From Kiritimatiellales bacterium (GTDB lineage: Bacteria; Verrucomicrobiota; Kiritimatiellia; UBA8416; JAIOPI01), in assembly GCA_945949405.1 (NCBI GenBank), contig CAMFEP010000002.1:1-49794 (forward strand): a DNA stretch of 49,794 bases, read 5' to 3'. Positions 10,558 through 29,771 of this stretch are shown one piece after another. A program made the translations under genes and the position numbers. The first letter of the stretch is position 1. Each line of letters begins with the position of its first letter. The notes under the pieces were generated by a model. That model was not told the origin of the DNA, did not search any database, and was given only the letters and a program-made list of their open reading frames with translations.

Positions 10558-10568
10558 GGTCCCGTCCG

Positions 10569-10604: not shown

Positions 10605-10610
10605 GCCCCT

Positions 10611-13607: not shown

Positions 13608-13633
13608 TTAGACCGTGCGCCGCCCGTTAGTCT

Positions 13634-14056
13634 TCAGGGCTTGTCGTCGCCGTCAGCATCGTCATCCGTCCCGGCTTCACTGGAATCGTCGCCTTCCGCA
13701 TGCTTGCCGCGGAATTCTTCCTTCATCCCCTTGCGCGCCTGGGACCGCTCCTCGTCCGACAACTCGCCATCGCCATCGGCGTCGTACTTCTCCACCATCT
13801 TCTTTTTGTCTTTGCGCGCCGCCTTCTTTTCGCTCTTGGACAGCTCCCCGTCGCCATCCTTGTCGTAGCGCTTCAGCATCATCTCCTGCTTGCGCTGCTT
13901 GTGATCCGCTTTCGCATCGCTCGCGGCCGCTTCCCCGCTGACCACCGCATTCGTGCTCCCCGCTTCGGCGGCAGACTCCTCGGCCCGCACCGTTCCCACC
14001 AAGGCCACCGTCATCACCGCGCCAGCCAGCAACCATCCATAGGTCATCTTGCTCAT
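13634..14056 (-). CDS. Secreted EF-hand calcium-binding protein
   Basis: Two canonical EF loops (DKDGDGELSKSE, DADGDGELSDEE). Signal-like N-terminus MSKMTYGWLLAGAVMTVALVGTVRA. ATG 14056 has AAGGA upstream; the ORF extends to 14128. Confidence 0.7.
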   Translation of the reverse strand: MSKMTYGWLLAGAVMTVALVGTVRAEESAAEAGSTNAVVSGEAAASDAKADHKQRKQEMMLKRYDKDGDGELSKSEKKAARKDKKKMVEKYDADGDGELSDEERSQARKGMKEEFRGKHAEGDDSSEAGTDDDADGDDKP

Positions 14057-14238
14057 TCGATTCCTTATCCTTCCGGCGGTTATTCGTTCCACCATCCCTC
14101 TGACGTCCAATTCCCGTATTCTATTCATCTATCCCTGATAAGGCAAAAAGAAGCGCGCGGCGGGGCGAACCTGCGTCACCATAATCGTTTCACCGCAATC
14201 ATAGGCATTCCCAGTCATTCCTGCTACACTCCGCAACC

Positions 14239-17200
14239 ATGAGCGCTCGCGATCCGTCCCTGCCCGCCCGTCGCAAACTCCCCCCCTCGCGCCTCGCCGT
14301 CTTGTGCGTGGCACTCGGCCTCTTCGGCCTCTGGCTGGCGCTCCACCTCAACCAGCTCACCGCCACCCAGGATGGCTGGATCCGCTTCGTCCTGACCTTC
14401 GCCTTTTGCCTGCTGCTCATGTTCCGCCCCAAGCCCGGCCACGCCCTGCCGTCCACCTTCCCCAGCGCCCACGCCTCCGTCCTCGTGGCCATTCCCGGCA
14501 CCGCCCTAGTCCTCATGGGCCTGATCATGGGCGTGCAACAGTCCGAGTGGATCGGCATCTTGCTCATCCTCTGGGGCTGCCTGCGCTGGAGCCTGCCCGC
14601 CGGCCACCGCCCGGACACCACCCTCGCCCTGCTCCTGCTCTATTGGGCCCACCCCATCCCCGGCCAGATCTTCGGCCCCCTGCAACTCGCCATGCAACAC
14701 CTCTCCGTACGCGGCACCGAATGGCTCCTGCTGGGCCTCGACGTGCGCGTCTGGGCCGACGGCCTGGTCCTGCGCACCGGCTTCAGCACCTACGAAGTCC
14801 CCACCTGGTGCAGCGGCATGCGCACCGCCACCACCGTCTTTCTCCTCGGCTGGGGCCTCGCCCTCCTGAACCGCTTCCGCCTGTGGGAATGCGCGCTGAC
14901 CGTGCTGGCCGCGCTGTTTCAGGCGCTGCTGCTGAACATCCTGCGCATCGCCACAATGGTCGTTTGCGTGCCGCGCCTCTTCGACATGTCCCAAATTGAA
15001 TATTTGCACGACACCGCCGGGCTGATCGTCCTTGCCGCCGTCTTCTTGGTCTACCTCGAAATCAACTTGTGGCGGCGCTGGCGCCAGAGCCTCAATGCCC
15101 CGCACGCGGACGGATACCTCGATCACCAGATCGAGCACCCGCCGGACTGGTGGCACCTGCGCCGCAGCCGTTGGGCAGTCATCTCCGTCGTCCTGTTCGT
15201 CGGCTGGCTCACGCTCACGCTCTACCGCAACGGCCCGCAAAATCGGCTCGCCGTCCTGAAGGATGTCGCCACCGCCTCCCACGACTCCGACGACCACGAG
15301 GAAGCCCTGCATCTCGCCCAGACCGTGCTCATCCACGATCCCGCCGATACGGAATGGCATCTGAAATCCATCCGCCTGCTCCTGACCCTGCGCCGCTACA
15401 ACGAGGTGCTCACGGAAACGGTGCGCGTGCGGCCGCTCGACGAAACCCAGATCCATGAACGCGATGTCCTGCGCGCCTATGCCCTGATGGCCCTCGAGCG
15501 CCTCGATGAAGCCGCCGCCATCGTGCAAATCCTGCCCGACGAAATTCGCCGCGCCAACCCGCGCGTGGCCATGATTCTCGCCGTAATGGCCTTCCGCCGC
15601 GACGACCCCGATGGCGTGGCCGACAACATCAAACTCGCGGCGCGCTGGAAACCCAACATGGACCGCGTCCGCCTCATGTACCCCTATCTGCGCAAGCACC
15701 GCAAATGGCAGGCCATCGCGGATACCGATTCACCCGAGCCCCATCGCAAACCGGAGTCGATTTTTTCGGCGATCGAAGCCTACATGAACCTCGACCAGGC
15801 CCCCAAGGTGGCAAGGCTCACCCTCCGCGCCGTGGCCACGTGGCCCGGGGACCCGCGCGTACTCGAGCCCTTGTTTTACATGGCCTCTAAGCGCCCCGGC
15901 TCGGACTGGGAAGCCCGCTTCCGCGAACAGCTGCGCCTCTGCGCGGACGGCTTGCGCTCCCCCGACGCAATCTATCCGCTCTTCGACAAATGCTTCGAGC
16001 TCGGCCGCCCCGATCTCGCCTGGTATCTGTACCGCCGCATCCACGCCCTCGACCCCACCCATCCCACCCTGCCGCTCTCCCTCGCGCGCTTCGGGAACCA
16101 GTGGTTTGCCTTCCGCCGCCGCTCGCTCGGCATCCCTTCGCCAACCCCCATGAACACCATCGATTTGAGCTCTGCCTACCAAGCTGGCCGCCTCTTCCCC
16201 GAATGGCGGTCGCTGCTGGATTGGATTCCCGAGGGCAACGCCATGGCCGCGCCCGTCCCCCAGTCGATGGCGGCCCGCCAACGCTTCCTCGATGCCGCCC
16301 TGCGCGAATTCGAAACGCGCGCCGCTCAGAGCACCCTCACCCCGCCGATGCGCTACCTCTACGCGCGCGCCTTGGAACTGGCAGGGCGGCGCATGGAAAG
16401 CCGCACCGCCCTGCGCCAAATCGCCACGGATGCCCCGGATGAATCGCGCACGGTGGACCTCGCGCTTTCGGAAATGTATGAACGCGCCGGTGACTGGCAG
16501 AACGTCTACGAAACCTTGCGCACCGCCATGGCCGACGTGAATACGGGCCTGACGCCCCTCCTGCGCTTCGGCCGCGCCACCGTAAACCTGCGGCTTAACG
16601 TGGCCGCCCTGCACACCGCCTGCGAAATTCACCGCCGCTATCCGCGCTCGGCCCAGGCCGACGCGCTCCTCGCCTCCGCCCTGCTCCAGACCGGCGCTCC
16701 CGACGAGGCCCTGTCGTTGATCGATCAACCGCGCCCGCGCCACATCCGCGAGCTCGACCTCTTGCGCGCCCAAGCCCTCTTCGTGACCCAACGCTTCACG
16801 GAAGCCGATGCCTTCTGCCACGCCGTCCTCCTCGCGCACCCGCCCGTGCATGCCGACACCCCGCAGCGCTTTGTGCTGCCACCCGCGGAGCTGTCGCATC
16901 TCTGGCACCAGGCCTATGTCCCCTCCGCCCCGCAATTCGAAAAAAATGCCGACGTGCTCCGCCAAAATCTCGCCGCATCCACCAATCCCTTCCTGAAGTC
17001 CATGATGACAGCCTGGCTCGCCTGCTACGCCGCCCGCGGTGCCAGCAACACCACCAGCCTCGCCAACTGGGAACAGACGGGCCGCGATCCCCTCGAACGC
17101 GCGGTGGCACTGAACCAGCTCACGCTCCTGCTCTGCCGCTTCGGACGCCTCGCCGATGCGCGCGATGCCGCCGTGCGCGCATCGGAACTGCTGCCGGAAT

Positions 17201-18417
17201 CGCCGCTCCTCCTCCGCTGGGAAGTCGCCCTGACCGGCGTGGACACCGGCGTGCTGGCCCGCGCCCGCGCCCAATGCCCGCACGATCCGGAACTGTGGCT
17301 CGCCGAACTGGTCCATGCCGCGCGCACCGAACCGGCGCGCGCCACGAACATGCTCGCGGAGTTGCAGGCCCCCGGCAGCCCGGTGTTCCCCGCCGAAACG
17401 ATCACCCGCGCCGGGGAATATTTGCGCCGCCAGGGCTTGACCAACGCCGGCACCTTGGCCTTGCGAGACGCCACCCGCCGCGCCGCCGGCCTGCTACCGA
17501 TTTATCTGCTGGGTTTGCGCTGCGCCATGGCCGACGGCGATCGTGATTGGGCCACCACCTGCACACGCCTCGCCATCGCCAGCGCCTTGCGCCCGCCCAC
17601 CACCCTCTATCGCAAGATGGTCGATCTCAAAACCGCCAACGGCGAGCCCGAGGCAGATTTTGACATGGTCGAAGCGCTCAAAAATCTGCGCCAGAATGAA
17701 CCCGACAATCTTCTCTGGGCCCAAATGCTCGGCTATGTGCGCTTCAAACGCGGCGGCTGGGAAGTGCTCGATGCGTATTCCCAGATGGACGCGGCGCTTA
17801 CCCGCGGTGCCACCAACAAACTCACCTTCATCATCGCCGCCGAATCCGCGCGCCTGCTCGAAAACCACCTCCGTGCCACGGAAATTTTGCGTCAGGGTCT
17901 GGAGTGGTATCCCGGCGATCGCGTCCTGCTGAACAACCTGGCCTACGGCTTGAGCCACATGCCCGACGGCCAGACCGAAGCCGGGGCCCTCGTGCCGCAA
18001 CTGCTGGCCCTGGACAAGGACGACCCGCAAATCCTCGACACCGTGGCCGGCATTTATGTGGCGGCAGGAAAAACACAGGAAGCACGCGACATCATCGAGC
18101 GCCTCCTGGCCCATACCAAAACCGGTGAACCGCTCTGGTTCCGCGCGCGCCTGCACGACGCCGCGCTGCTCGCCGCAACCAATAACATGGCGGGCGCGCT
18201 GGGTCTTCTGGATGACGCACTCGCGCACACCACCGACCTGCCGGACGAGGACGTGATGATCGCCAATCGCCTCCAGGCGCAATGGGAAAACCGGCGCCTG
18301 GAAGCGGAAGCCGCCGCCCGGCCTCCCCCCGCACCGGATGTGCTCACGCCCACACAAACGGTGGAAGCTCTGGCGACCGAAGACCTCTGGCCCATCCCGC
18401 CGGAGGCTGCGCCCTGA
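14239..18417 (+). CDS. Exosortase-family transpeptidase fused to a roughly 1,100-aa TPR-like repeat region
   Basis: The N-terminal ~290 aa are polytopic and carry the exosortase Cys/Arg/His contexts VPTWCSGMR, LLNILRIATM and YLHDTAGL. The rest is helical-repeat sequence with clear TPR-like units (e.g. LNNLAYGL...DPQILDTVAGIYVAAGKTQEARDIIERLL). Confidence 0.8.
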   Translation: MSARDPSLPARRKLPPSRLAVLCVALGLFGLWLALHLNQLTATQDGWIRFVLTFAFCLLLMFRPKPGHALPSTFPSAHASVLVAIPGTALVLMGLIMGVQQSEWIGILLILWGCLRWSLPAGHRPDTTLALLLLYWAHPIPGQIFGPLQLAMQHLSVRGTEWLLLGLDVRVWADGLVLRTGFSTYEVPTWCSGMRTATTVFLLGWGLALLNRFRLWECALTVLAALFQALLLNILRIATMVVCVPRLFDMSQIEYLHDTAGLIVLAAVFLVYLEINLWRRWRQSLNAPHADGYLDHQIEHPPDWWHLRRSRWAVISVVLFVGWLTLTLYRNGPQNRLAVLKDVATASHDSDDHEEALHLAQTVLIHDPADTEWHLKSIRLLLTLRRYNEVLTETVRVRPLDETQIHERDVLRAYALMALERLDEAAAIVQILPDEIRRANPRVAMILAVMAFRRDDPDGVADNIKLAARWKPNMDRVRLMYPYLRKHRKWQAIADTDSPEPHRKPESIFSAIEAYMNLDQAPKVARLTLRAVATWPGDPRVLEPLFYMASKRPGSDWEARFREQLRLCADGLRSPDAIYPLFDKCFELGRPDLAWYLYRRIHALDPTHPTLPLSLARFGNQWFAFRRRSLGIPSPTPMNTIDLSSAYQAGRLFPEWRSLLDWIPEGNAMAAPVPQSMAARQRFLDAALREFETRAAQSTLTPPMRYLYARALELAGRRMESRTALRQIATDAPDESRTVDLALSEMYERAGDWQNVYETLRTAMADVNTGLTPLLRFGRATVNLRLNVAALHTACEIHRRYPRSAQADALLASALLQTGAPDEALSLIDQPRPRHIRELDLLRAQALFVTQRFTEADAFCHAVLLAHPPVHADTPQRFVLPPAELSHLWHQAYVPSAPQFEKNADVLRQNLAASTNPFLKSMMTAWLACYAARGASNTTSLANWEQTGRDPLERAVALNQLTLLLCRFGRLADARDAAVRASELLPESPLLLRWEVALTGVDTGVLARARAQCPHDPELWLAELVHAARTEPARATNMLAELQAPGSPVFPAETITRAGEYLRRQGLTNAGTLALRDATRRAAGLLPIYLLGLRCAMADGDRDWATTCTRLAIASALRPPTTLYRKMVDLKTANGEPEADFDMVEALKNLRQNEPDNLLWAQMLGYVRFKRGGWEVLDAYSQMDAALTRGATNKLTFIIAAESARLLENHLRATEILRQGLEWYPGDRVLLNNLAYGLSHMPDGQTEAGALVPQLLALDKDDPQILDTVAGIYVAAGKTQEARDIIERLLAHTKTGEPLWFRARLHDAALLAATNNMAGALGLLDDALAHTTDLPDEDVMIANRLQAQWENRRLEAEAAARPPPAPDVLTPTQTVEALATEDLWPIPPEAAP

Positions 18418-18424
18418 CGGGCGC

Positions 18425-18470
18425 ACTACAAACGGTTTACCCAGTTTGTAGTCACGCCGTCAGGCGTGAT
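18425..18470. terminator. Two hairpins in the convergent exosortase / PEP-CTERM gap (no U-tract)
   Basis: ACTACAAAC (18425..18433) pairs with GTTTGTAGT (18445..18453). TCACGCC-GTCA-GGCGTGA (18452..18469) is the family E subtype. The position between two convergent stops suggests a terminator role, but neither strand has a T-run. Confidence 0.35.
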
Positions 18471-18487
18471 CCCGGTCTGGCGCAGCG

Positions 18488-19219
18488 CTATTTTGCGCTT
18501 TCTGCGCCTTTTTGCGGAAAATCCAATCGCCTGCGCCTCCGATTGAAAAAGGCGCCCAGCAACACCGAAGACAACAACGCCAGCTGCCCCGGCTCGGGCA
18601 CGAGCAACCGAAAATTGTCCAGGCCATAGATTTCCACACCCGCATCCTCACGGAAAATGTAAATGCCGATCCAGTCGATCGCCGCCAGATCGGCCAGAAA
18701 CTGCTCCTCGTCATCGTCGAATCCCGGCAACGGCCCCCAGGCATCCGAAAACGCCAGGGACACCTCGATCGTCTGCCACGACTGCGTCTGCGTGATCAGG
18801 CTCGTCACGTCATAGGACCAGACATTGCCATTCGTGGAGCCAAATTGCAGTTGTACGTTCTGCGGCAGCGCATTCGATGCCCAAAAGTCGAACCCCACGC
18901 ACATCCCAGGCGTCCAGTTGCCGGCAAAAAAATCGTTGGCGTCGGTGTAGATGATCTCCTCCCACTCGACCACGCCAATTTCCGGCTCGGTCGTGGGGGG
19001 AAAAACAATGGGCATCCAGCCGTTCGGATTGCCGCCCGTGGTGTCCCAGCCGAGCGACACGTCGTTATACATCGACGTCCAGGCATGGGGATGGTTGTCC
19101 CATGTGTGCTCATGCACAACGGCCGCCGCTGCGGAACGGACCATCACGCAAAGCAAGCCCAGCGCCAACAGCACCGGCGGCCTGCACGCAAACATGCGTA
19201 GGGTCTTCGCAAACATCAT
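18488..19219 (-). CDS. PEP-CTERM sorting-domain protein (jelly-roll-like ectodomain)
   Basis: The C-terminus VPEPGQLALLSSVLLGAFFNRRRRR gives a PEP motif, a TM helix and an Arg cluster (about 18527..18601). Signal-like N-terminus. ATG 19219 overlaps the upstream gene's TGA as ATGA; the ORF extends to 19231. Confidence 0.8.
   Translation of the reverse strand: MMFAKTLRMFACRPPVLLALGLLCVMVRSAAAAVVHEHTWDNHPHAWTSMYNDVSLGWDTTGGNPNGWMPIVFPPTTEPEIGVVEWEEIIYTDANDFFAGNWTPGMCVGFDFWASNALPQNVQLQFGSTNGNVWSYDVTSLITQTQSWQTIEVSLAFSDAWGPLPGFDDDEEQFLADLAAIDWIGIYIFREDAGVEIYGLDNFRLLVPEPGQLALLSSVLLGAFFNRRRRRLDFPQKGAESAK
18489..18535. repeat. Dispersed repeat family F (copy 2), forming the 3' end of the PEP-CTERM gene
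   Basis: TATTTTGCGCTTTCTGCGCCTTTTTGCGGAAAATCC resembles 7321..7366. On the minus strand it encodes ...RRLDFPQKGAESAK-stop. Confidence 0.55.
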
Positions 19220-20325
19220 GGCGGCGTCCATTCAAAATCCGCGCCGCCCCATTGGTTGGCCCGGTGGCGATAGTAATAGCCTGCGCCCGGCTCCAGCGCA
19301 AAATCCGCAAAGTCCGCCGCCTTGTTATCCCACCACCGGCCGTCCCACTTGGCGCCCACATGATCCATGAGCCAGTAGTACCCCTTCCACTCGTTGTTTT
19401 CCCAAACCCAAATCTGATCCCCGTTCTCATCGGCACGCCGGTGATCGCTCGTCTTGCCGCCGGATCCAACCACTGCAAAGCCAAGCGGATCCAATGGCGA
19501 AGGCGCAACGCGCTGCGCCACATCGGCACGGCGGTGCTGCAACGGACGGCTCGCGGGCAAACCGAACGGCGTTCCACGCTTCTCATCCAGCCGGATCGTC
19601 ACCGCCCCATAGGGCCGCGCATAGGTCCGCCCCCAAAAAGCGCCACGCACGCCCTGTTTCGCCGCGGCCGCGCCGCGCTGAATCCAAAATCCCTGCCCCG
19701 GCGCAATCGCATCTTCCGCCGCGGCATTCGCCTCCACATTCCACCACCGCGCCACGCCATCCGGCCCTTCCATCCAATACACCGCGCGCCACGCCCCCTC
19801 GCCGGTCGCAAGTTCCAACCGGTCCGCATCATTGGTGGAAGCCCCCGCGTGAAGCCCCAACCCGAGTTGCCGCCCCAGCAGCCGGTCGAGGCGATTTTCA
19901 GCGCCCAGCGCCACGGGCACGGAAACCAGATAGCGCTGCCCGGCCTCGCGCGGCTGCACGAACATTGCCCACTCGTCCGTGCTCTTCCACGCCGAGGCGC
20001 CGGTCTGCACCTGCACCCGGTAATAGCGCACCCCCGGCGCCGCCGCCGCACCGGCATCCACCCAGCTCAGCGTCGTGTCAAATTCACCAGTGACCACCGC
20101 CACCGGCCGCGCCTCCATGTCCGCTGCCGTGCTCACCAGAATCGTGGCCCGCACCGGTACACGAAAAGCAAGATCGAGCCGCACGTCCGCCCCGCCCGCC
20201 AGATCCAGCCCGGCAATCTGCACGGGCGGTTCCTGGGCATACTGCGTCTGCAGCGACACCACCTGGCATGCCGTACACGCCGCAAGGGCCAGCGCGCCGG
20301 ACAACATCACGATATATCGCTGCAC
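19216..20325 (-). CDS. Predicted lipoprotein of unknown function, paralogous to the C-terminal third of 21313..24078
   Basis: GTG start 1 nt after the upstream stop. MQRYIVMLSGALALAAC contains a lipobox (LAAC). Residues ~35-369 align by eye with residues ~569-921 of the 921-aa protein (EWAMF, WVWxNNEW, YYWLMDH, FALEPG, WGGA). Confidence 0.7.
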   Translation of the reverse strand: MQRYIVMLSGALALAACTACQVVSLQTQYAQEPPVQIAGLDLAGGADVRLDLAFRVPVRATILVSTAADMEARPVAVVTGEFDTTLSWVDAGAAAAPGVRYYRVQVQTGASAWKSTDEWAMFVQPREAGQRYLVSVPVALGAENRLDRLLGRQLGLGLHAGASTNDADRLELATGEGAWRAVYWMEGPDGVARWWNVEANAAAEDAIAPGQGFWIQRGAAAAKQGVRGAFWGRTYARPYGAVTIRLDEKRGTPFGLPASRPLQHRRADVAQRVAPSPLDPLGFAVVGSGGKTSDHRRADENGDQIWVWENNEWKGYYWLMDHVGAKWDGRWWDNKAADFADFALEPGAGYYYRHRANQWGGADFEWTPP

Positions 20326-20326
20326 C

Positions 20327-21295
20327 CTATGGCTCCTCTACTTCGATGATGTAAAAAGCCGCCGCCTCATTGGTCGCCACGGGAGCAAGATACTCGGTGA
20401 CCGGCGGCGTCGAGGGCACGCCCGCGTCCACCGGATTCAAGTCGCCGTCCACCAGATCCAGCGTGCGCCAGACCGCGTATGTGCGGTTGGAAATCGAATT
20501 CCAGCGCAGCACCACGCCCTCCACCGGTGCGCCCGGTGGCGTGGCGTCCCGCTCAATCTCCACGGTGAAGACCGAGTTCACATCGCGCGGATCGGTCCCC
20601 GCACGAAATTCCGCATAATTGATCATCCCGTCGCCGTCTTCATCCCCGCCCGCATCCGCCGGGTTGTCCGGGTTGAGCGCGTAGCCCGATTCCCAATCGT
20701 CAGGCATGCCGTCCGCGTCGCGATCGCCCGGCGGAATGGCGAGCCCCTGCAGTGTAAAATCGTCGAGGGCGTAATGCTGCTCGGCGGGATGGCCATGCCG
20801 GCGTACATAGACCGAGACGCGGCTGGCATGCAGCAGGTCGAAGGCGAATGCCTCCGCGCTGCCCTCCGGCCCCATGAACCAGCCGGGACCGTAGGCCATC
20901 GGAATCGCGTAGGGTTGCCACGCCCCCACCGTCGGTGCGGTGAGATTCAATTGCCAGATGTGGTTGTTCGTCCGCGAATGAAACACCACGCGCAGCGCGC
21001 TCGGATACATGGTGACCGCCTGGAACTGGAATTGCAGATTCGTGAGCAACACCGAACCAGGCAACTCAACCCAGGCACGATCCTCCACCAGCGCCGGGAC
21101 CGATTGCGCGTTGAACTTGAAATCCAGATACCCGCCCGGATTGCTCAACGACGCCCCCGCCGTATCATTCGACCACCCCGCCGTCCCCGGCCCCGCCCAC
21201 GACTCCATGGACTCCGTCGCCCGCGCCTGGTTCCCCAGCGCGACCAGCAACAGACCCGCGAGTACCGTAGCCCTGCGATGTGCAGCGTTTTTCAT
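20327..21295 (-). CDS. Secreted jelly-roll protein with TSP3-like Ca-binding linker and C-terminal beta-module
   Basis: Signal peptide MKNAAHRRATVLAGLLLVALGNQARA (ATG 21295; the ORF extends to a GTG at 21355). The ectodomain resembles that of the PEP-CTERM protein (LQFQF, ...YALDDFTLQG versus YGLDNFRLL). Then DRDADGMPDDWE...DEDGDGMINYAEFRAGTDP and a module ending FYIIEV. Confidence 0.7.
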   Translation of the reverse strand: MKNAAHRRATVLAGLLLVALGNQARATESMESWAGPGTAGWSNDTAGASLSNPGGYLDFKFNAQSVPALVEDRAWVELPGSVLLTNLQFQFQAVTMYPSALRVVFHSRTNNHIWQLNLTAPTVGAWQPYAIPMAYGPGWFMGPEGSAEAFAFDLLHASRVSVYVRRHGHPAEQHYALDDFTLQGLAIPPGDRDADGMPDDWESGYALNPDNPADAGGDEDGDGMINYAEFRAGTDPRDVNSVFTVEIERDATPPGAPVEGVVLRWNSISNRTYAVWRTLDLVDGDLNPVDAGVPSTPPVTEYLAPVATNEAAAFYIIEVEEP

Positions 21296-21312
21296 GCGTC
21301 GTCCCACAATAT

Positions 21313-24078
21313 TCAATTCTGTACCGGCGTAAAGCTGAAGTTCGCCCCGCCCCACAAATTAGTCACATGCTTGTAGTAATAGGCCTTGCCCGGTTCGAGC
21401 GCGAAGTTCGCGTAGTCTGGCACGAACCGGTCCCACCAGCGCAGGTTGCGCGTGCTGCTGATGTGATCCATGAGCCAGTAATACCGGTACCACTCGTTGT
21501 TGCCCCAGACCCAGAGCTCGTCACCTTTATAGAGCGCCGACGCCGTCGCCCCGTTGCTGATGCCGCCCGTGGCCAGCGCCTCGAAGCCCAGTGGCGACGC
21601 CGTGGTGAGCGTTCCCTGATTGCGCTGCCAGCGCGCCTTCGGCAATGGCCAGCCCATTACATTCCAGTTGCCGTCGTTTGTGGTCAGCGCGATCGAGGCC
21701 ACCGTGCCATCCGTCCAGGTCCTGCCCGTGAACACCGTGTTGGCGCGCAGCACCACCCCCGTGCCTCGCACCACCCAGAAGCCCAGGCCCACCGGCACCG
21801 TGAACGTCGCCGGCGCCGCCAGGTCCGCGTCATACCAGAAGCGCGTGCCGCTGCCGTTGGTCACGAAGTAGAACTGCTTCCACGTCTTGTCCGCCTGCAA
21901 ATACTCCACACGATCGGCCTGCGAAAGCGTCGCATCCGGATGCAGCCCGCGCCCCAGCTCCAGCCCCAGGCGGTCGCTGATGTTGTTCGAACTGCTCGTG
22001 CCGTAGTTGATCGGCACGCAGATCAGGAAGGAGTTGGTCTTGGATCGCGCCTGCGCGAACATCGCCCACTCCTCCGTGTTCGTATAGGCCCCGCCCGCAT
22101 AGGTCACCGATACGTTGTAAAAACGCGAACTGTAGAGCGCCGCGGCATTCGTATCCGTCCAGGAGTTCACGCCCGTCAGCCCGTCGAGTACGGCCGTCTG
22201 TGCCGTGCGCGCGTTGGTGATGTCGTTCGCCGCCACGGTGACGCGGTAATTGCGCACCGGCAGATCGCCCACCGTGCCAAAGGTCGTCGGGCCGTTGTTC
22301 GTGCCGCCGCCCCACCAGATCTGCACGTTTGAATTGGTCTCATAGTTGAGGTCGACATTGGCAATCTTCATCATCGAGTTGCTGCTGTTGGGATCGGTTC
22401 CCGCCATGAACTCCCGCGTGTTGGAAACGCCGTCGCCATCCGCATCCGCATTGGCATTGTTGCCCACCCCGCCCAGATACTGGATCTCCCAGCGGTCCGA
22501 AAGTCCGTTGCCGTCCCGGTCCACCGCCACGGGCATCGTCGAGGCAATGCCGAAACTGTCCACATACAATGCCCGGTTCGTGGTCAAATGCGTGGCGAGC
22601 GTGACGACATTCGTGGCGTATGGCGCCCAGGCCGTACCGTACACATTGCTCGCGAAGGTTCGGTAAAAATACCGCTGGCCGTGGGTCAGGTTCGTTAGCG
22701 TCGTGGTCAACAGCCCCCACCGGTTGGTGCCCAGCGCCCGGTGATAGGTCCAGGTTTGCTCATTAGTCCCGCCATCGTACAACCCGTAGTGCATGATGAT
22801 GGTCGGGTAGGGATAACCCCCGCGCACATGCGCCTTCACCGTGGCCTGGGTGGAGGACACGCTCACGTAGCCGCTATACACGCTCGTCGAGGGTGCATTC
22901 GTCGCCGGCACCGGCACCGCGCTCAATAGAAGGTCGTCCAGGTAATAGGAATCGCCCGTGTTGTTGGCCGCGCTTTCATCGAAGCGCACCCGCACCGCCA
23001 CCTGCGTCTGCGTCAGCCCCAGCGTGACCTCATAGGGATTGGGCGTGACCGTCGCCGGATTAAGCAGGTTTGTCGCCCCAAACTCCACGTCCGCATTGCC
23101 GAAACCATCCACCAGCTTGACGCTGCCCGCGCCCGCCCAGCTCCCCCCGTTGTCGTATGACAGATCCAGGTGGAAGTCGTCGTCGATTTCCGGATTGTCT
23201 GCCGCAAACGCCAACTCCAGCTCTACCGCTTCCACATCCCCCACCACGTTGGTCAGAAGATTCGTCAGCACGACGTTGTCGAAAATCACGCTGGGATCCG
23301 CGGTTCCCGCCACCGAACCCGTCAGCGTCAACGACCGGGCGCCCGTCCATTGCTTGCCTGTGGAACGCGTAATGGACCCCGCACCCGCATTCGTCGCGTG
23401 GTTCCAGTTGTCCGAGTGCGCCCCATCGAATCCGTGCGCCCGCAGCATCCGCCGCCCATCGTCCACCGTCACCGTGCCGTTGAGCACCACGTTGTCCAGG
23501 CGCCAGGTCCCCGACAGACTCAAGGCGTTGGTCGCATACACCCGGACGTACACCGTGCCTGCCAGATCCAGCGGATACAGATCGGCCGCGCTCTCGCTGT
23601 GCCATGTGTTGGAACCGCCAGCCGCCGCCGCGCCCATGGTATAGTAGGTCACGTTGTCCGGACTGTAGCGCACGACCCAGTAGGAGGGCCCCTCCGTCGA
23701 CAACTGATGATCAAAATCCAGACTGTCGAGATCGAGCAGGAACCCCGCCCCCACCGTCACCGAGAACGCAAAGTAGCCCCCCAGCGTCGCGTTCGTCGGC
23801 CACTGCGTCGAGCGGAAAGACTGCCCCGGATTGCCTACGAGGAAGTTCGTCGTCCCGCCCCCCACGTAAACCAAATTCGACGCCGTCACCAGCGCGTATA
23901 CGTTGGTCGGCACCAGGTTCGTGGCGTCAAAGTCGTAGCGCACCAGCTCGGTGGCCCGCGCGAACTGCGCCGCGCACAGCATGGCTATGGCCGCCAAAAG
24001 TGCACACACGCGCCGGCCCCTTCCACTCCCACTGGAGGGCGAGGCTGTGCCGAGCCGCATGTTTAACCCTGGCTTCAT
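21313..24078 (-). CDS. Large secreted multidomain protein (jelly-roll modules, FN3-like, TSP3-like linker, unknown C-terminal domain)
   Basis: 921 aa. Signal-like RRVCALLAAIAMLCAAQFARA. Modules end TWRLDNVVLNG and SYYLDDLLLS. DRDGNGLSDRWE...DADGDGVSNTREFMAGTDP linker. The C-terminal ~350 aa are paralogous to 19216..20325. ATG 24078 lies 1 nt after the upstream stop. Confidence 0.75.
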   Translation of the reverse strand: MKPGLNMRLGTASPSSGSGRGRRVCALLAAIAMLCAAQFARATELVRYDFDATNLVPTNVYALVTASNLVYVGGGTTNFLVGNPGQSFRSTQWPTNATLGGYFAFSVTVGAGFLLDLDSLDFDHQLSTEGPSYWVVRYSPDNVTYYTMGAAAAGGSNTWHSESAADLYPLDLAGTVYVRVYATNALSLSGTWRLDNVVLNGTVTVDDGRRMLRAHGFDGAHSDNWNHATNAGAGSITRSTGKQWTGARSLTLTGSVAGTADPSVIFDNVVLTNLLTNVVGDVEAVELELAFAADNPEIDDDFHLDLSYDNGGSWAGAGSVKLVDGFGNADVEFGATNLLNPATVTPNPYEVTLGLTQTQVAVRVRFDESAANNTGDSYYLDDLLLSAVPVPATNAPSTSVYSGYVSVSSTQATVKAHVRGGYPYPTIIMHYGLYDGGTNEQTWTYHRALGTNRWGLLTTTLTNLTHGQRYFYRTFASNVYGTAWAPYATNVVTLATHLTTNRALYVDSFGIASTMPVAVDRDGNGLSDRWEIQYLGGVGNNANADADGDGVSNTREFMAGTDPNSSNSMMKIANVDLNYETNSNVQIWWGGGTNNGPTTFGTVGDLPVRNYRVTVAANDITNARTAQTAVLDGLTGVNSWTDTNAAALYSSRFYNVSVTYAGGAYTNTEEWAMFAQARSKTNSFLICVPINYGTSSSNNISDRLGLELGRGLHPDATLSQADRVEYLQADKTWKQFYFVTNGSGTRFWYDADLAAPATFTVPVGLGFWVVRGTGVVLRANTVFTGRTWTDGTVASIALTTNDGNWNVMGWPLPKARWQRNQGTLTTASPLGFEALATGGISNGATASALYKGDELWVWGNNEWYRYYWLMDHISSTRNLRWWDRFVPDYANFALEPGKAYYYKHVTNLWGGANFSFTPVQN
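24032..24058. repeat. Dispersed repeat family C (copy 2), inside the 5' end of the 921-aa gene
   Basis: CTGGAGGGCGAGGCTGTGCCGAGCCGC differs from 656..682 by one mismatch. On the minus strand it encodes RLGTASPSS of the N-terminal region. Confidence 0.75.
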
Positions 24079-24079
24079 G

Positions 24080-24679
24080 TCAATTCTTCACCCGGAACGC
24101 TTGAAAATAGGAGTTCGTCGAAATCGACGCGAACGGCACATTGGTGATCACCGACGTCAGCAGCCGGTTGGGCACGTCGTCCGCCGTGAACAGGGACCAC
24201 CGGCTGGCCTTGTAATCCAGATTCACCGTGAAGCGCTGCCAGGTGTTGGACGGCACCGTGGTACTCAACGTCAGCCAGGTATCGTTGCTCAACACACGCA
24301 GCGCCCCCGCGGTATCGATATAAAAGGCCGCCGCCACGCTGCCCGTGATCACCGGCGGCGTGTTGTTCGTGGAATACGGCTGCCGCGCGTAAAAATCAAT
24401 CCACACGTTGGTGATCGTCGCATCGTTGAATTCGTTCCACATCACGGCATTCGTCGCCACAATCGCGGCCTTGGCCCCGGCGAACTTGACCGCCGCCTGC
24501 ACCTGCACATCCTGGTTGCGCAGCGTCTCCCATTCATTGAGGGAAATCAGCGCGCCGGAGGACAGATTGTCGAAGCTTTCCATGAACGGTACGTCGCCGG
24601 CGCGCACGGCACCGGCGCCCAGCGCCAGCGCCAGCAGCGCCGCCGCCAGCCCTCGAAGTCTGTATCCCGTTTCCTTCAT
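24080..24679 (-). CDS. Secreted hypothetical protein (LamG/ConA-like jelly roll suspected)
   Basis: Signal peptide MKETGYRLRGLAAALLALALGAGAVRA. ATG 24679 has GGGAG 7 nt upstream and lies 16 nt after the giant gene's stop; the ORF extends to 24718. The fold assignment rests only on the beta-rich pattern (WQRFTVNLDY..RWSLF). Confidence 0.6.
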   Translation of the reverse strand: MKETGYRLRGLAAALLALALGAGAVRAGDVPFMESFDNLSSGALISLNEWETLRNQDVQVQAAVKFAGAKAAIVATNAVMWNEFNDATITNVWIDFYARQPYSTNNTPPVITGSVAAAFYIDTAGALRVLSNDTWLTLSTTVPSNTWQRFTVNLDYKASRWSLFTADDVPNRLLTSVITNVPFASISTNSYFQAFRVKN

Positions 24680-24695
24680 CTTGCGCTCCCGCGTC

Positions 24696-27600
24696 CTATT
24701 CGAACAAATAGAAGACATTGCCCGCCGGATTCACCGCCGTGACCGTCACGTTCACCGTGATCAAATCGATGTTGTTGAATTGGTCATACACCATCACGAT
24801 GAAATAATCGCTTCCCGAGAAGTAGCGCGCCGGCGCGTAGCTCACCACCATCGTGCCGCCCGTACCGCTGGCCGCAGCACTCCCGTAGAACGGAGCCGCC
24901 AGCACCGACCACTGGATCACATCCCCGTACGGCGTGTCCGCATCCGTGGCATGCAGCGTCAGGCTGAATGGCACAGGGCTCCCGTTTTCGGACATCGTCA
25001 CATTGGCGTTGGTGCCTTCGGTGATCACGGGCGCAAAGGTCACCGTGGCCTGCGTGCCCGTGGTAAATGACGAAGTCAGATAATTGGCCCCGCCCGCGGC
25101 GCCATTGTATTCGAACAACGCGAACGAATAGGTCGTCCCCGGATACAACCCGGTTACGGTCACGTTGGTCCCGGACGCATTATACACCGCATACACACCG
25201 GTGGCGATCGCCGCCCCGTTGCTGTGCACGGAGTTCGCCGTGTAGCCAACGCCGTCCACGGGCAGGTTGGTCACGCTGCCGCCCACCCGCGCCACCAGCA
25301 GCCGGTTGGCCCCGTTGCCGCTGTTCCACGACACCGTCATCTGCGCGTTCGACACCGCCGTGAAGATCAGGTTGCTCGACGCCAGCGTCGGCTCGCTCTC
25401 CAGCACTGCGTGGCCCACCACCCGGAAGTCGTACGGATTCTGCTGCGTGTCATTGTTGGCGATGCTCACCGTGGTCGTGTAAACCCCCACCACGTCCGGC
25501 GCAAATTGCAACGTGAAGGTCGTCGCCGTCAGCCCGTTCAGGTTGCTCGACGCCGGCTGACTGGTGATGGTGAAGTTCGTCGCCCCGCTCAACGATAGCG
25601 CCGGATTGTTGGTCAGGCTCAAGGCATAGGTGGCGTTGACGTTGGTGATGGTGAAGGTGTGGCTGAAGCTCGTGTTGGCTACGATGTTGCTAAACAGCGT
25701 GCCGTCCGCGGTGGTGGGCGTCGTGTCCCCGTCAGCAATCGCCGCGCCGTTGGTCCCCAGCACGGACATCACCGGGCCGAACACCAGATCCACCTGGTGC
25801 GCCGAAACCACCACGCGACCAGTCACGCTGCCCGACCAGTTCGTGGTGGAGAAGGCCCCGTTGATCGAATGCGTACCACCCTGCGCATTGGTGATGATCA
25901 TGTAGCTGCCGGCCGCCACCGCGCCAATATTGCTCACGGTCAGCGTGCCGTTCAGGTTCACGTCATCGCCCACGTTGATCGCGGCGATGGCCCCGTTCCA
26001 CAGCGTTACCTGCAACTCACCATTGTTTTGCGAGGAGAACGCCAGGTCGTCCCCAACCGTCACGCTGGGCGCCGCGCCCAACACATGAAACACGCCGCGC
26101 CCCGTGGCCGCGTCCGTGTCGCCCAGTTCGATGTCGCCATTGTCGCTGCCCGCCCCGATCGTGATCGTGCCGTTCGTGATTGCATAGCGCCCGTTGCGGT
26201 TGCCCGTGGTGCCCTGCCCGCCCAGCACCAGCGGTTGCCCCGCGGCAATTTGCACCGCACCACCGCTCTGATTGACGATGCCCGTGGCGCCAAAACCCGC
26301 GCCCACGTTGAAATCGTTGCCCAGCGTGATCAAGCCACCCGAGAGATTCAGCGTGGAAATGCCATTCGTGGCGAAGTTGATCATGTCCACACCCACCGTG
26401 CCGCTGGACACGTTGAATGTCGCCGCGTAGTCCACGTCCAGGTCGCCCGTGCCGATCGTGTCCAACCGCCCGCCCGCCACGGTCAGCGTCGACCCGCCGC
26501 CACCCGTGAAATCACCCACCGTCACCACGCCCGCCGTCACCGCGCCGCCCGAAATCGTCAGCGCGCCCAAGCCGGCCCGCCCGACTACCAGGTCGCCCAC
26601 CGCCGTCAGCCGCCCGCTGCTCACCGTCACCGTGCCCGTCGACCCGCCGGCGTTGCCGATGTTCACATTCGTGGCCGTGCCCAGTCCGCCACTGACCGTC
26701 AGCGTGCCGCGTGCCGCCGACGCATCGCCGATCTCAATCGAATCCCCCACCGTCAACACGCCGCCCGAAAGCGTCACCGCATTGTTCGCGCCGTTATTGG
26801 CCGCGTCGCCAATCACCAAATCCCGCCCATTGCTAACAGTCACGGTGGCCACCCCGGAAATCGCCATCGTGCCCAGGCCCGCCACACCCACAAATAAATG
26901 CTCCGTGCCACCTGCACCGCCGGCATTCAACTGGCCCGCCGTCGCGCTCAAGGTGCCCGTGGAGCCCGCCACGTTGCCGATGTTCAGCGCATCCGTCACC
27001 GTCAGCACGCCGCCACTCAAGGCCACCGCGCCGCTGGCCCCGGAGTTGTTGCCCACGGTCAGATCCCGTGAGGCCAACGCTGTCCCACCCGCCACCGTGA
27101 GCGTGCTGCCCGCGTCTTCCGCGCCGGCGCTGCCCGCCGCCACGATCCAATCGCCAATGGAGGTCACCGCCGCCGTGCCCGTGACCGTCATCAAGCCCAC
27201 GCCCGCGGAGCCGATCGTCGTCGCGCCCGTGATCGTCAGCGCCCCGCCGCTGGCCCAGTACGTGCCGCGATCGCCCGAACTCTCGCCCAGCGTGAACAGG
27301 TTCTTGACGCCCAGCACACCGCCGGTCTGCTCCACCGTCCCCGTGCCGTTGTCGCTGCCGCCATCGAAGCCATTGTCACCCACGAACAGGTTCGAAACCA
27401 CTTCACCCGCCAGGGTCACCAGCGCCGTGTACCCGCCGTTGACGAAACTCACATCAATCGCCGCCGGTTCGATATCCGCCGTCCAGTTCGTGGCATTGCT
27501 CCAGTCGCGGTCCGCCCCGCCGCCCGCATCCCATTCGAAGGTCGGCACGCCAAAGGTAATGGTGTTCGTCGTCGTCAGCGCATCGTTGGCGCGATCCCCG

Positions 27601-29771
27601 TCGTTGTCCGTCAGCACCACCAGCGCCGTCCACACGCCGCCCTGAATCGCCCCCGACACCGGCGTGGCGCTCACCGAAACCGCCCGCGCATTGGTCGTCC
27701 CGTCGGTGATGCTGTTCGTCAAAATCACCGTCAGCCGCACCGCACCGCTCGGATCCAGGATGCGCAGGAACGGCGAATTGCTCGGCACGTTCGTGCTCGT
27801 GCCGTTCACGTTCAACCCGCTGTAGGCGTCCTGCACGATGCCCGTGATCGACCAGCTGCCGCTGGAAAGTTCCGCGCCCGTGACGATGTTCGTGCCGCGG
27901 CTGGTCCCGGAAAGCGTGAACGACGTCGCTGAAGGCGCCACGCTGTCGTCGTCCACCACGCTCAAGAAGGACTGGGCGTTGGTGATCACCGTGCGATCCC
28001 ACGGAATCGGATCGCCGTTGCTGCCCGGATCGGCATAGGTGCCGCGATCGTTGTCCTCATCTTCCGCGCTGGCCGTGAGGAAGAACACGTTGTTGAAATC
28101 GATGTTCGTGATCACGAAGGCATTCTGCTGCCAGGTGGTCACGGAGGTCGCGCCGTTGGCGCCGATGAAATTCGTGAAGACTTGGTCGTAGCCAAAATCA
28201 TTGGTCACATGCGTCACGCTGTTCGACGTGTACAAATCCCAGTTGGCAATCACGCGGCCGGCCTCGCTGCCGATATTCGTGTTCGGGAACGGCGGGCTGT
28301 TGGTCAGGAACACACCACTGGGGTCGTCCCACCGTACCGCAATGTCCGCGAGGTTGGTGGCGTTGGCCAGATCGGCGTCGGTGATGTTCGTCTGCGTCGC
28401 GCCGATCGTGTAGTTCGCGCCGATGAAGATCAGCGTCGGCGTCGGGCCGGTCACGTCGTCGTCATACACGCTGAACGTGATGTTCGATCCGTTCGATGTC
28501 TGCGGGTTGTCGGTCCGATAGGCCTCATTGGAGTTGATCGCGCTCCAGCGCAGCGTCGCCGTGCCAATCGGAATATTCACGGAGGTCACCGGGCTGATCG
28601 TGGCGTTACTGCCCACCATCACCGTGGCGTTGGCGTTGTAACTGGTGCTGGCAAACAGCCGGTCCTGCACCATGTGATCGCCGCTGCTGTTGATCAGGTC
28701 GAAGTTGGGCTTGAAGAACGGCGCGTTCGTGGTGTCGCTGCGCACGCCGTACTGGTCGTAAAACGTCACGGAAATCGGGAAGTTCCCGCTGTTCAGCGTG
28801 CCGTCGGTCACGCTGTTGGTGCTGTCCACCGCGTGGAAGGTCACGTTGGACACCACGGGATAGCCCTGCGGCGTGGTCAGCGCGCAAAGCAGATCGCTCC
28901 ACGTCGTGGCGATGCGAACGTCGTCCCACTCCACGATGCCGGCCGTTTCCGCCGCAAGCCCGTTCTGCGCATACAGCGTCAGCCGGTTCAAGGGGCCGGT
29001 CCCCGCCGGTGCCGTGCGCGTCGTGCTGTCCCAGCTTTCCGTGGCCGTGAGGCTGTTGGCGAAGTGTCCCTTGACCTTAACCTCGCGGCTGGCGAAGTCG
29101 TAGCGCATCAGAATCAGATACTCCGATCCCGCGCCGCCGATACCATAGCTGGTGAGCGAAATGCCGTCCGTGGTCTGGATGCCCAGGTTGTTGGAACTGG
29201 CATCCACCTTGCCGATCTTGATCTTGAAGCTGCCGCCGTCGCCCAGCATCACGCCGTAATCCTTGCCGGTCCCGGTGAATTGCGCCTTGAGCTTGAAGCC
29301 GAGGTACAACACGCCGGAACTGATCTGCGGGAAGGCCCGATAGGCCTCGCGGTACAGGCCGAAGCACGAGTCCTCACCAAAGCCACCACAGTTCGCCATG
29401 TCCACCGCTGCGTCGTTGCCGCCATCGTTGCAGTAGTTGTCAAAATTCGCCAGGCTTGTGGAGCCCACGTATGGCTCCGGCGCGAGCGTGGCATTGTCCA
29501 CCCACGCGCCGCTCCATCCGTAACCGCCGTTCTTGGTTTCCAGCACGTTGCCCGCCGTCTCGCTGAACGTATCGTAGCTGACCTGCCCGTTGTACCCCGT
29601 CACGCTCAAGGTCACCACCACCGCCTGAGTCCCCGCCTCGCCCGCATACACCGTGTTGGTCGCCGTGTAGGTGCCGCGCGCCAGGTGATAGGTCGTCGCC
29701 ACCCCGTGCCCGTGCTCAACACGCCTGAGGCCGCGCCCACCAGCCCCGTCGCCGGCGCCACCGCCAACCAA
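24696..29771 (-). CDS. Giant surface protein, downstream reading-frame segment
   Basis: 1691-aa ORF with no credible own start (TTG, no signal peptide). It continues a domain begun in 29612..36190. It contains a ConA/LamG-like module (GWSGAW...WDDVRIATTW), G/T-rich beta-helix-like repeats (GGVLTVxDxLxIG), an FN3-like module and a C-terminal Ig/cadherin-like module. Confidence 0.75.
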   Translation of the reverse strand: MVGGGAGDGAGGRGLRRVEHGHGVATTYHLARGTYTATNTVYAGEAGTQAVVVTLSVTGYNGQVSYDTFSETAGNVLETKNGGYGWSGAWVDNATLAPEPYVGSTSLANFDNYCNDGGNDAAVDMANCGGFGEDSCFGLYREAYRAFPQISSGVLYLGFKLKAQFTGTGKDYGVMLGDGGSFKIKIGKVDASSNNLGIQTTDGISLTSYGIGGAGSEYLILMRYDFASREVKVKGHFANSLTATESWDSTTRTAPAGTGPLNRLTLYAQNGLAAETAGIVEWDDVRIATTWSDLLCALTTPQGYPVVSNVTFHAVDSTNSVTDGTLNSGNFPISVTFYDQYGVRSDTTNAPFFKPNFDLINSSGDHMVQDRLFASTSYNANATVMVGSNATISPVTSVNIPIGTATLRWSAINSNEAYRTDNPQTSNGSNITFSVYDDDVTGPTPTLIFIGANYTIGATQTNITDADLANATNLADIAVRWDDPSGVFLTNSPPFPNTNIGSEAGRVIANWDLYTSNSVTHVTNDFGYDQVFTNFIGANGATSVTTWQQNAFVITNIDFNNVFFLTASAEDEDNDRGTYADPGSNGDPIPWDRTVITNAQSFLSVVDDDSVAPSATSFTLSGTSRGTNIVTGAELSSGSWSITGIVQDAYSGLNVNGTSTNVPSNSPFLRILDPSGAVRLTVILTNSITDGTTNARAVSVSATPVSGAIQGGVWTALVVLTDNDGDRANDALTTTNTITFGVPTFEWDAGGGADRDWSNATNWTADIEPAAIDVSFVNGGYTALVTLAGEVVSNLFVGDNGFDGGSDNGTGTVEQTGGVLGVKNLFTLGESSGDRGTYWASGGALTITGATTIGSAGVGLMTVTGTAAVTSIGDWIVAAGSAGAEDAGSTLTVAGGTALASRDLTVGNNSGASGAVALSGGVLTVTDALNIGNVAGSTGTLSATAGQLNAGGAGGTEHLFVGVAGLGTMAISGVATVTVSNGRDLVIGDAANNGANNAVTLSGGVLTVGDSIEIGDASAARGTLTVSGGLGTATNVNIGNAGGSTGTVTVSSGRLTAVGDLVVGRAGLGALTISGGAVTAGVVTVGDFTGGGGSTLTVAGGRLDTIGTGDLDVDYAATFNVSSGTVGVDMINFATNGISTLNLSGGLITLGNDFNVGAGFGATGIVNQSGGAVQIAAGQPLVLGGQGTTGNRNGRYAITNGTITIGAGSDNGDIELGDTDAATGRGVFHVLGAAPSVTVGDDLAFSSQNNGELQVTLWNGAIAAINVGDDVNLNGTLTVSNIGAVAAGSYMIITNAQGGTHSINGAFSTTNWSGSVTGRVVVSAHQVDLVFGPVMSVLGTNGAAIADGDTTPTTADGTLFSNIVANTSFSHTFTITNVNATYALSLTNNPALSLSGATNFTITSQPASSNLNGLTATTFTLQFAPDVVGVYTTTVSIANNDTQQNPYDFRVVGHAVLESEPTLASSNLIFTAVSNAQMTVSWNSGNGANRLLVARVGGSVTNLPVDGVGYTANSVHSNGAAIATGVYAVYNASGTNVTVTGLYPGTTYSFALFEYNGAAGGANYLTSSFTTGTQATVTFAPVITEGTNANVTMSENGSPVPFSLTLHATDADTPYGDVIQWSVLAAPFYGSAAASGTGGTMVVSYAPARYFSGSDYFIVMVYDQFNNIDLITVNVTVTAVNPAGNVFYLFE

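Follow-up and report, generated by a model that had tools for sequence, protein, structure and literature searches.

The stretch of DNA considered here (the window) comprises 49,794 nucleotides (nt) of contig CAMFEP010000002.1 in assembly GCA_945949405.1 of a Kiritimatiellales bacterium, and it contains a single open reading frame (ORF) of 1392 amino acids in which the membrane core of an exosortase is continued by a very long helical-repeat domain, or solenoid. The gene converges on another one, which encodes a secreted protein of 247 amino acids with a PEP-CTERM sorting signal and ends exactly 70 nt past the stop codon of the enzyme gene. This partner gene is, in turn, the last of a tightly packed minus-strand run of genes for secreted proteins. 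The original prediction, made from the sequence alone, had described one ORF with a membrane domain followed by a helical repeat, convergent with a PEP-CTERM gene 70 nt away that ends a surface-protein operon, and this layout has held: about 1,060 residues lie past the core, the spacing is exact and both models of the PEP-CTERM signal are passed.

Exosortases are widespread enzymes whose biochemistry is poorly understood, and new subfamilies are regularly described. In the fusion protein, family-averaged hydropathy and AlphaFold2 models agree on a core of eight membrane helices, complemented by a periplasmic helix and beta-hairpin loop (residues 142-186); this helix with its three-stranded loop directly precedes Cys191. 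The three motifs expected of these enzymes are present as WCSGMR (residues 190-195), NILRIA (233-238) and LHDTAG (256-261), and the residues in them that are presumed to be catalytic are almost invariant (Table 1). The Pfam model Exosortase_EpsH (PF09721) aligns with residues 31-274 at 81 bits (cutoff 25.7), the NCBIfam exosortase/archaeosortase signature TIGR04178 scores 36.3 (cutoff 23), and all 35 of the relatives scanned also match models of the superfamily. These hidden Markov models (HMMs), both of them passed by the N-terminal domain, and the positions of the motifs bear out the proposal that the first 290 residues or so are a polytopic exosortase domain, and the protein is almost certainly a member of the exosortase/archaeosortase superfamily. 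A PDB sequence search returned no solved structure of the core.

As judged by the curated models, the protein is neither XrtA nor any other named exosortase (Xrt). Assignment to a named subfamily was rejected since none of the 35 members scanned, that is, the query and 34 relatives, attains any NCBIfam cutoff: the best scores of the query were 55.6 for XrtD (cutoff 400), 54.5 for 8TM_EpsH (105.55) and 51.6 for XrtA (TIGR03109; 208), with the models XrtW, T, J, V, C, B and CrtC scoring lower still. The comparison covered XrtB, C, D, J, N, O, Q, T, V, W and X, as well as cyanoexosortases B and C. Across the members of the family the best E-value of the XrtA model was 1.2e-18, and for the query the Archaeosortase C model gave 23.9 (cutoff 100). 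An extension of the EpsI type (TIGR02914) was likewise discarded, with no match at E ≤ 1 in Pfam or NCBIfam.

The core ends near residue 286 and does not lead directly into the solenoid: as a refinement of the earlier description, there is first a linker rich in basic residues and then a further hydrophobic helix, the ninth. Helix 8 continues into the linker (residues 278-301), of which residues 288-297 have a predicted local distance difference test score (pLDDT) below 50 in the AlphaFold2 model. No loop is more basic than the one that joins helix 8 to helix 9, with a mean of 8.2 Lys + Arg over 61 members, and helix 9 is the strongest hydrophobic peak of the family. Over the same members, the density of Lys + Arg taken loop by loop is 0.19, 0.00, 0.24, 0.07, 0.12, 0.06, 0.34, 0.08 and 0.23. 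This alternation of charge, read with the positive-inside rule, argues for a cytoplasmic location of both the N-terminus and this most basic loop. Cys191, Arg236 and His257 would then be found at the periplasmic face, as would the long loop that joins helix 5 to helix 6, and helix 9 is likely to cross outward and place the solenoid in the periplasm.

The solenoid has been modelled with high confidence. The AlphaFold2 model of residues 331-1392 has a mean pLDDT of 93.6 and a predicted template modelling score (pTM) of 0.82, and that of residues 1-1200 reaches 91.4 and 0.72, respectively. Past helix 9 the chain is all-helical in the models (62 helices in 1,062 residues) apart from a small beta-hairpin insert (residues 624-642), a long loop (864-882) and the disordered C-terminal tail. 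Foldseek matches it to the large tetratricopeptide repeat (TPR) scaffolds of the PDB with a probability of 1.00, among them IFT-A TTC21B, Ski3, Ctr9, Naa15, subunits of the APC, OGT and the bacterial adaptor LbcA; TM-scores are low (0.12-0.35), as is expected of long superhelices. The sequence itself gives much less of this away. Two Pfam models, TPR_19 (51.6, cutoff 25) and TPR_14 (40.6, cutoff 23.5), pass at residues 1247-1302, near the C-terminus, where the original prediction had placed recognisable TPR units, a weak ANAPC3/TPR_16 signal appears at residues 799-856, and about 90% of the solenoid carries no TPR signal at the level of sequence. The term TPR-like is thus justified by the predicted fold, and by sequence the domain would qualify as a textbook TPR array only in its last 150 residues or so.

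The solenoid is also well conserved within its own family. Trp, Pro, Arg and Glu occur at invariant positions scattered from about residue 370 to 1270, and several Cys residues are conserved. A filter-free phmmer search with residues 331-1392 against 1.84 billion representatives (50% identity) retrieved 217 proteins at E ≤ 1e-30 and 353 at E ≤ 1e-3, and among the 150 matches listed most are full-length fusions of about 1320-1450 amino acids in which the alignment starts at about residue 320-370. A generic TPR array would be expected to draw far more than 353 matches, and the solenoid can therefore be regarded as family-specific.

With respect to its distribution, a search of 5.8 billion proteins gave 173 matches, and the best 120 of them are nearly all 1300-1460 amino acids long, with 35-64% identity and about 95% coverage of the query; the closest relatives are 62-66% identical to it. 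The full-length layout, with a typical length of about 1330-1450 amino acids, is shared by at least 120 clusters (90% identity) and by 217 representatives (50% identity), so that the fused arrangement is the rule within the family. The source labels of the relatives are Kiritimatiellia/Kiritimatiellae, Lentisphaerae/Lentisphaerota, Victivallales, Verrucomicrobia and the Planctomycetes-Verrucomicrobia-Chlamydiae (PVC) group, all of them uncultured. No cultured host was found in a genome scan with three exact peptide patterns, which divergent members could escape and whose 40 loci all belong to metagenome-assembled genomes (MAGs). The databases name the relatives only 'archaeosortase/exosortase family protein', and the literature search returned nothing on exosortase-TPR fusions or on PEP-CTERM in Kiritimatiellia/Lentisphaerae. 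The family is an unnamed exosortase subfamily, so far confined to uncultured PVC bacteria of the Kiritimatiellia/Lentisphaerae type. The fusion had been presented as unusual; it is common inside one uncultured PVC lineage, but no named Xrt subfamily or paper was found that describes it.

The family has its own variants. Stand-alone solenoid genes were considered as a common split form and rejected: P0093, P0099, P0108 and P0117, the four shortest of the best 120 matches, are truncated gene calls, three of which begin within the core, the other (P0099) having an intact N-terminus and a short C-terminal end. Several other short entries begin inside or just past helix 9 and look truncated. The sole genuine-looking case of a membrane-anchored solenoid without an exosortase core is P0137 (961 amino acids; L045:506-3391), on a contig of 4.8 kb with no exosortase reading frame in the 505 nt upstream, and it may represent a rare split form. 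Another member, P0119 (1353 amino acids), has Ala, Ala and Asp in place of the catalytic Cys, Arg and His, and retains the membrane domain and the full solenoid. It may be a catalytically dead paralogue, to judge from these substitutions, and if so the scaffold would be expected to have a function of its own, independent of catalysis. Long variants of 1478-1685 amino acids also occur (P0141, P0154, P0157, P0159, P0160, P0172, P0173, P0187 and L048:5001-10058), and the four that were read (P0141, P0154, P0157 and P0160) contain an internally duplicated solenoid segment of about 300 residues. In MAG BS750m-G23 two paralogues coexist (L026 and L042), both with intact catalytic motifs; L042 shares only 32% identity with the query and the copy at L026 is the only one with a PEP-CTERM neighbour. 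A sister clade with about 30% identity (L046:1888-4972 and L047:1603-4977) has the enzyme gene as the last of an operon, preceded by genes for a predicted polytopic membrane protein of 536-579 amino acids and a secreted protein of 490-526 amino acids, which ends in ...YKF or ...HQF and weakly matches EpsL (E 1e-5) and outer-membrane-protein beta-barrel models.

The partner of the enzyme is a protein with an N-terminal signal peptide and a canonical tail (...LLVPEPGQLALLSSVLLGAFFNRRRRR...), made of VPEP, a hydrophobic stretch and RRRRR, which scores 22.8 with PF07589 (cutoff 20.7) and 25.3 with TIGR02595 (cutoff 16). Neither a Pfam domain other than PEP-CTERM nor, by sequence search, a relative in the PDB was found for it, and it goes by no name other than 'hypothetical' or 'PEP-CTERM sorting domain-containing protein'. 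A homologue of the partner (37-70% identical), with the conserved end YGLDNFxLx[VI]PEP, occupies the same convergent position in each of the first three relatives of the enzyme that were examined. A survey of 44 fetched loci (40 distinct), in which an HMM was combined with a tail pattern, extended this: a homologue adjoins the enzyme gene in about 22 of about 33 informative loci, or roughly two thirds. Its orientation differs at L016, where both genes share a strand and the partner is the upstream one, and at L048, where the partner and operon genes are found directly upstream, on the same strand, of a 1685-amino-acid variant 34% identical to the query. At other loci, among them L004, L013-L015, L017, L026 and L041, the partner has been kept adjacent although the other genes of the surface-protein operon are missing. 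Adjacency is spread throughout a neighbour-joining tree of the enzymes, and the losses are scattered. Between the two convergent genes of the window, the region 18408-18490 folds into a stable hairpin on either strand (minimum free energies of -39.9 and -41.6 kcal/mol; z -3.5 and -3.9) with no U-tract, and this hairpin may serve as a bidirectional terminator.

The loci that lack the partner offered no convincing alternative C-terminal sorting signal beside the enzyme gene. One odd tail was noted, at L019, where a convergent ORF of 517 amino acids (10114-11667, minus strand) lies right after the enzyme gene and ends in ...LPDGALLALLCAAFLPLVGLAASRPPRERRK, a hydrophobic and basic tail with no PEP motif.

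Table 1. Features of the fusion gene, its convergent partner and the adjoining gene run; coordinates refer to the window (aa, amino acids).
Feature	Position	Strand	Evidence
Exosortase-solenoid fusion gene	14239..18417	+	Single ORF, 1392 aa, zero internal stops
Exosortase core, aa 1-286	14239..15096	+	PF09721, TIGR04178, hydropathy, AlphaFold2 helices
Putative catalytic Cys191 codon, WCSGMR	14809..14811	+	Cys in 60/61 aligned members
Conserved Arg236 codon, NILRIA	14944..14946	+	Arg in 60/61 aligned members
Conserved His257 codon, LHDTAG	15007..15009	+	His in 60/61 aligned members
Basic, partly disordered linker, aa 278-301, probably cytoplasmic	15070..15141	+	Lys/Arg content, low pLDDT
Ninth membrane helix, aa 302-330	15142..15228	+	Hydropathy peak 2.56 (family average), AlphaFold2 helix
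TPR-like alpha-solenoid, aa 331-1371 (about 1,040 residues)	15229..18351	+	AlphaFold2, Foldseek, conserved residues
Sole stretch recognised by sequence as canonical TPR, aa 1247-1302	17977..18144	+	Pfam TPR_19, TPR_14
Disordered Pro/Ala-rich C-terminal tail, aa 1372-1392	18352..18414	+	pLDDT < 50
Spacer between convergent genes, 70 nt	18418..18487	.	Stable hairpin on either strand
Secreted PEP-CTERM protein gene, 247 aa	18488..19231	-	PF07589, TIGR02595, signal peptide, conserved adjacency
PEP-CTERM domain of the partner, aa 211-235	18527-18601	-	PF07589, TIGR02595
Secreted-protein gene run, probably a single operon with the PEP-CTERM gene as its last	19216..36190	-	Tight spacing, signal peptides

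The proteins encoded upstream of the partner in the same run have 369, 342, 921, 212, 1691 and 2192 amino acids, and the features recognised in them are bacterial TSP3, fn3, choice-of-anchor D, the T5SS/PEP-CTERM-associated repeat and PATR/autotransporter repeats. The same set of genes lies beside the enzyme in nine of the loci (L001, L002, L007, L010, L012, L016, L027, L039 and L048). In the part of the run at 19216-24078 (minus strand), the 342-amino-acid protein shares its N-terminal domain with the 247-amino-acid partner (hmmsearch 1e-13 to 1e-23 across loci) and has no sorting tail, and the 369- and 921-amino-acid proteins share a C-terminal domain of about 65 residues (...WVW.NNEW..YYWLMDH...ALEPG..YYY.H...W.G..F..TP). 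The ORF of the 2192-amino-acid PATR-repeat protein (29612..36190, minus strand) and that of the 1691-amino-acid protein (24696..29771, minus strand) are in different frames and have an overlap of 160 nt, whose sequence is identical in three independent assemblies. The homologue in L001 is called as one gene of 3711 amino acids. A true frameshift, a pseudogene or a pair of separate genes could be involved.

On the other side of the enzyme gene are found an EF-hand protein gene and the genes for pyruvate dehydrogenase E1, E2 and E3, the latter recurring in L001, L005 and L040. The EF-hand protein (13634-14128, minus strand), a secreted protein of 164 amino acids rich in Asp and Lys, is divergent and lies just upstream of the enzyme gene; its position is taken in L001 by hemerythrin and Rrf2 genes, and it is thus not a conserved partner. 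Farther away, the region 36467-47041 holds a gene cluster of lipid or polyketide type that encodes an adenosine monophosphate (AMP)-binding enzyme similar to fatty acyl-AMP ligases, an acyl-acyl carrier protein thioesterase, two fatty-acid desaturases, a stand-alone ketosynthase of 609 amino acids, a methyltransferase, a flavin adenine dinucleotide monooxygenase and a type III polyketide synthase. Exopolysaccharide, glycosyltransferase, PrsK and PrsR genes are all absent from the 49.8-kb window.

Like XrtA/EpsH (PF09721, TIGR02602, TIGR03109), the fusion has a polytopic core with Cys, Arg and His in the contexts CSG, N..R and H, and its partner is a protein exported by Sec whose C-terminus consists of PEP, a hydrophobic helix and a basic cluster. 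The differences are that the fusion has 1392 amino acids, compared with profile lengths of 241-261, that it includes the extra ninth helix and a solenoid of about 1,040 residues, and that no exopolysaccharide, PrsK or PrsR genes accompany its gene in the 49.8-kb window. The XrtA-EpsI fusions and the subfamilies XrtD, XrtJ, XrtT and XrtW (472-522 amino acids) also have a domain added past the eight-helix core, but the extension described here is about four times larger, is a helical repeat and contains no detectable EpsI domain; matches to the models of these extended enzymes span only the first 250-290 positions, which shows that the extensions are unrelated. ArtA of Haloferax volcanii belongs to the same superfamily and is the source of the acyl-enzyme model, in which an acyl-enzyme forms on the active-site Cys before transfer to a lipid amine (PMC7157517). 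Unlike the fusion, ArtA is archaeal, recognises PGF-CTERM and has no solenoid.

Two systems offer a parallel for the solenoid. PrsT (TIGR02917) is a separate TPR lipoprotein of EpsH systems, for which a role with substrates or partners was suggested by Haft and colleagues (PMC1569441). Like PrsT, the solenoid would be a long periplasmic array of TPR type in an exosortase system, the solenoid being attached past membrane helix 9 and not a separate lipoprotein. Among the NCBIfam TPR models, that of PrsT scores best in each of the 35 members scanned. Specific homology with PrsT is nevertheless not supported: the model gives 59.8 bits (cutoff 312), with positions 754-898 out of about 900 aligned to the last 150 or so residues of the query, and the same canonical C-terminal repeats also match LbcA, PilW and designed TPRs. 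By analogy, the fusion resembles an XrtA-plus-PrsT pair in one polypeptide, with a PrsT homology that is not demonstrable. The second parallel is provided by LbcA-CtpA and NlpI-Prc (PDB 8sxe, 8sxf, 7rqf), in which a TPR lipoprotein serves as adaptor and scaffold for a C-terminal processing protease at the periplasmic face. In the PDB sequence search, LbcA (PA4667) scored best (75 bits, in the canonical TPR region), and Foldseek found it too. Those systems use a serine protease with a separate adaptor, whereas the fusion is a membrane Cys enzyme, and the similarity is confined to the canonical repeats.

Having described these elements, the reading that we consider most probable, at roughly 55%, is that the fusion is a lineage-specific exosortase of the inner membrane with a built-in periplasmic adaptor and that it processes the neighbouring 247-amino-acid protein. 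Once exported by Sec, this protein would remain anchored in the inner membrane by its PEP-CTERM helix, which would dock sideways into the exosortase core. Cys191 would then attack at or near the PEP motif to form an acyl-enzyme, as modelled for ArtA (PMC7157517), and the C-terminal anchor would be released, the protein being freed or handed to an acceptor. The solenoid, tethered by helix 9 beside the active site, would hold the mature part of the substrate or the partners encoded in the operon, a role that can be likened to those of PrsT in XrtA systems (PMC1569441) and of LbcA with the protease CtpA (PDB 8sxe). Each part has its own standing: that the neighbouring protein is the substrate is somewhat more likely than not, and the chances that the solenoid works as an adaptor are about even.

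Several observations weigh against this interpretation and have to be set beside it. The topology was deduced solely from the positive-inside rule and hydropathy. The matches to PrsT and LbcA span only the 150 or so C-terminal TPR residues and reflect a shared type of repeat, not specific homology. In about a dozen of the informative loci (about one third) the flank that was available contains no PEP-CTERM gene, from which it follows that adjacency is not obligatory. The sister clade with about 30% identity sits in a different operon with no PEP-CTERM gene nearby. Finally, the enzyme may serve many substrates, given that the evidence of pairing was drawn from the loci around the enzyme gene.

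This last point leads to the alternative that survives best, a serious if rather unlikely one, according to which the fusion is a general housekeeping exosortase for many scattered PEP-CTERM proteins and the 247-amino-acid neighbour is one linked substrate or accessory. It draws on the tail of the partner, which is standard and passes the generic TIGR02595, on the third of the loci without a PEP-CTERM neighbour, on the housekeeping nature of the flanking genes on the opposite side (pyruvate dehydrogenase), and on the 23 and 65 PEP-CTERM proteins encoded per genome in Akkermansia and Verrucomicrobium, respectively, which are other PVC bacteria (PMC4960237; PMC1569441, Table 1). With the density of those two genera, four or five other tails would be expected in the 555 kb made up by the window and 40 loci, a sample from about 40 genomes that is biased toward the surroundings of the enzyme. 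The 22 PEP-CTERM-like tails found there all belong to the family of the 247-amino-acid partner. This absence of others, together with the retention of the neighbour despite rearrangements and even where the enzyme is no more than 34% identical, speaks against a general function and hints, as far as sequences can, at a dedicated pairing of enzyme and partner.

A second alternative concerns the solenoid, which might be an envelope-spanning scaffold that reaches an outer-membrane or polysaccharide-export component, in the manner of the TPR parts of PgaA, BcsC and AlgK. Its roughly 31 helical hairpins far exceed what is needed to bind one small protein, the sister-clade operon encodes a polytopic membrane protein and a protein of about 500 amino acids with a C-terminus like that of an outer-membrane barrel, and the PgaA TPR model weakly matches 4 of the 35 members. 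The window, on the other hand, contains no polysaccharide-synthesis, glycosyltransferase or outer-membrane-barrel genes, and the EpsL match (24.8, cutoff 275) comes from another clade. Such a scaffold is improbable, although it would be compatible with the built-in adaptor proposed above and does not exclude it.

Two further readings fare worse. A cytoplasmic solenoid, with the opposite topology past helix 8 and coupled, for example, to regulators or chaperones, could be argued from the predictive character of the topology and from the first 30 residues past helix 9, which are fairly basic (0.20 Lys + Arg per residue); the strongly basic loop between helices 8 and 9, the alternation of charge across all loops, which agrees with a cytoplasmic N-terminus and an outward helix 9, and the marked hydrophobicity of helix 9 itself make it very improbable. 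The possibility that two genes were merged by a lost stop codon or an assembly frameshift can be dismissed as negligible, given the uninterrupted ORF, the agreement with a Logan contig from another metagenome run (X1; 13500-19500, 0 differences) and one from a different study (X2; 13500-19245, 8 substitutions, no indels), the more than 200 full-length homologues with tightly clustered lengths, and the short entries that proved to be truncated gene calls.

The gene also looks like its surroundings, with a GC content at third codon positions of 0.83 that matches real genes elsewhere in the window (contig GC 63%). The sequence of the window itself is contained in runs from lake and freshwater metagenomes, and a metatranscriptome contig of 252 nt spans 18243-18493, that is, the 3' end of the fusion gene and the spacer.

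Of the claims that could have undone the original prediction, a joined pair of genes, a domain outside the exosortase models and membership in a common, named subfamily, none did so: the first two were contradicted by the data described above, and with regard to the third the fusion is common inside one uncultured PVC lineage but belongs to no named Xrt. The sequences are already public under a generic name, and no curated subfamily model or paper was found that describes the fusion or its partner.

We know of no identified acceptor molecule for exosortases, nor of any explanation for the role of the PrsT of XrtA systems. A natural fusion of enzyme and scaffold argues that exosortases and TPR-type scaffolds cooperate at the periplasmic face. 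A bolder proposal, and a doubtful one, is that the fusion is a self-contained, sortase-like assembly machine of the Gram-negative envelope in which the periplasmic solenoid, beyond binding the substrate, acts as a template, the exosortase covalently joining the PEP-CTERM protein to an operon product or envelope polymer and thereby building the surface structure encoded next to it. If this were true, the acceptor of exosortases would be defined and their association with TPR partners would have a structural explanation. The family could receive its own model for the annotation of Kiritimatiellia and Lentisphaerae genomes. The enzyme and the one small PEP-CTERM protein with which it is regularly paired amount to a minimal two-gene system that could be reconstructed in a laboratory host and would be useful for questions about the cleavage site, the acceptor and the scaffold, and the size of the scaffold, its strict conservation and the compactness of the pairing provide a lead into how exosortases choose and handle their substrates.

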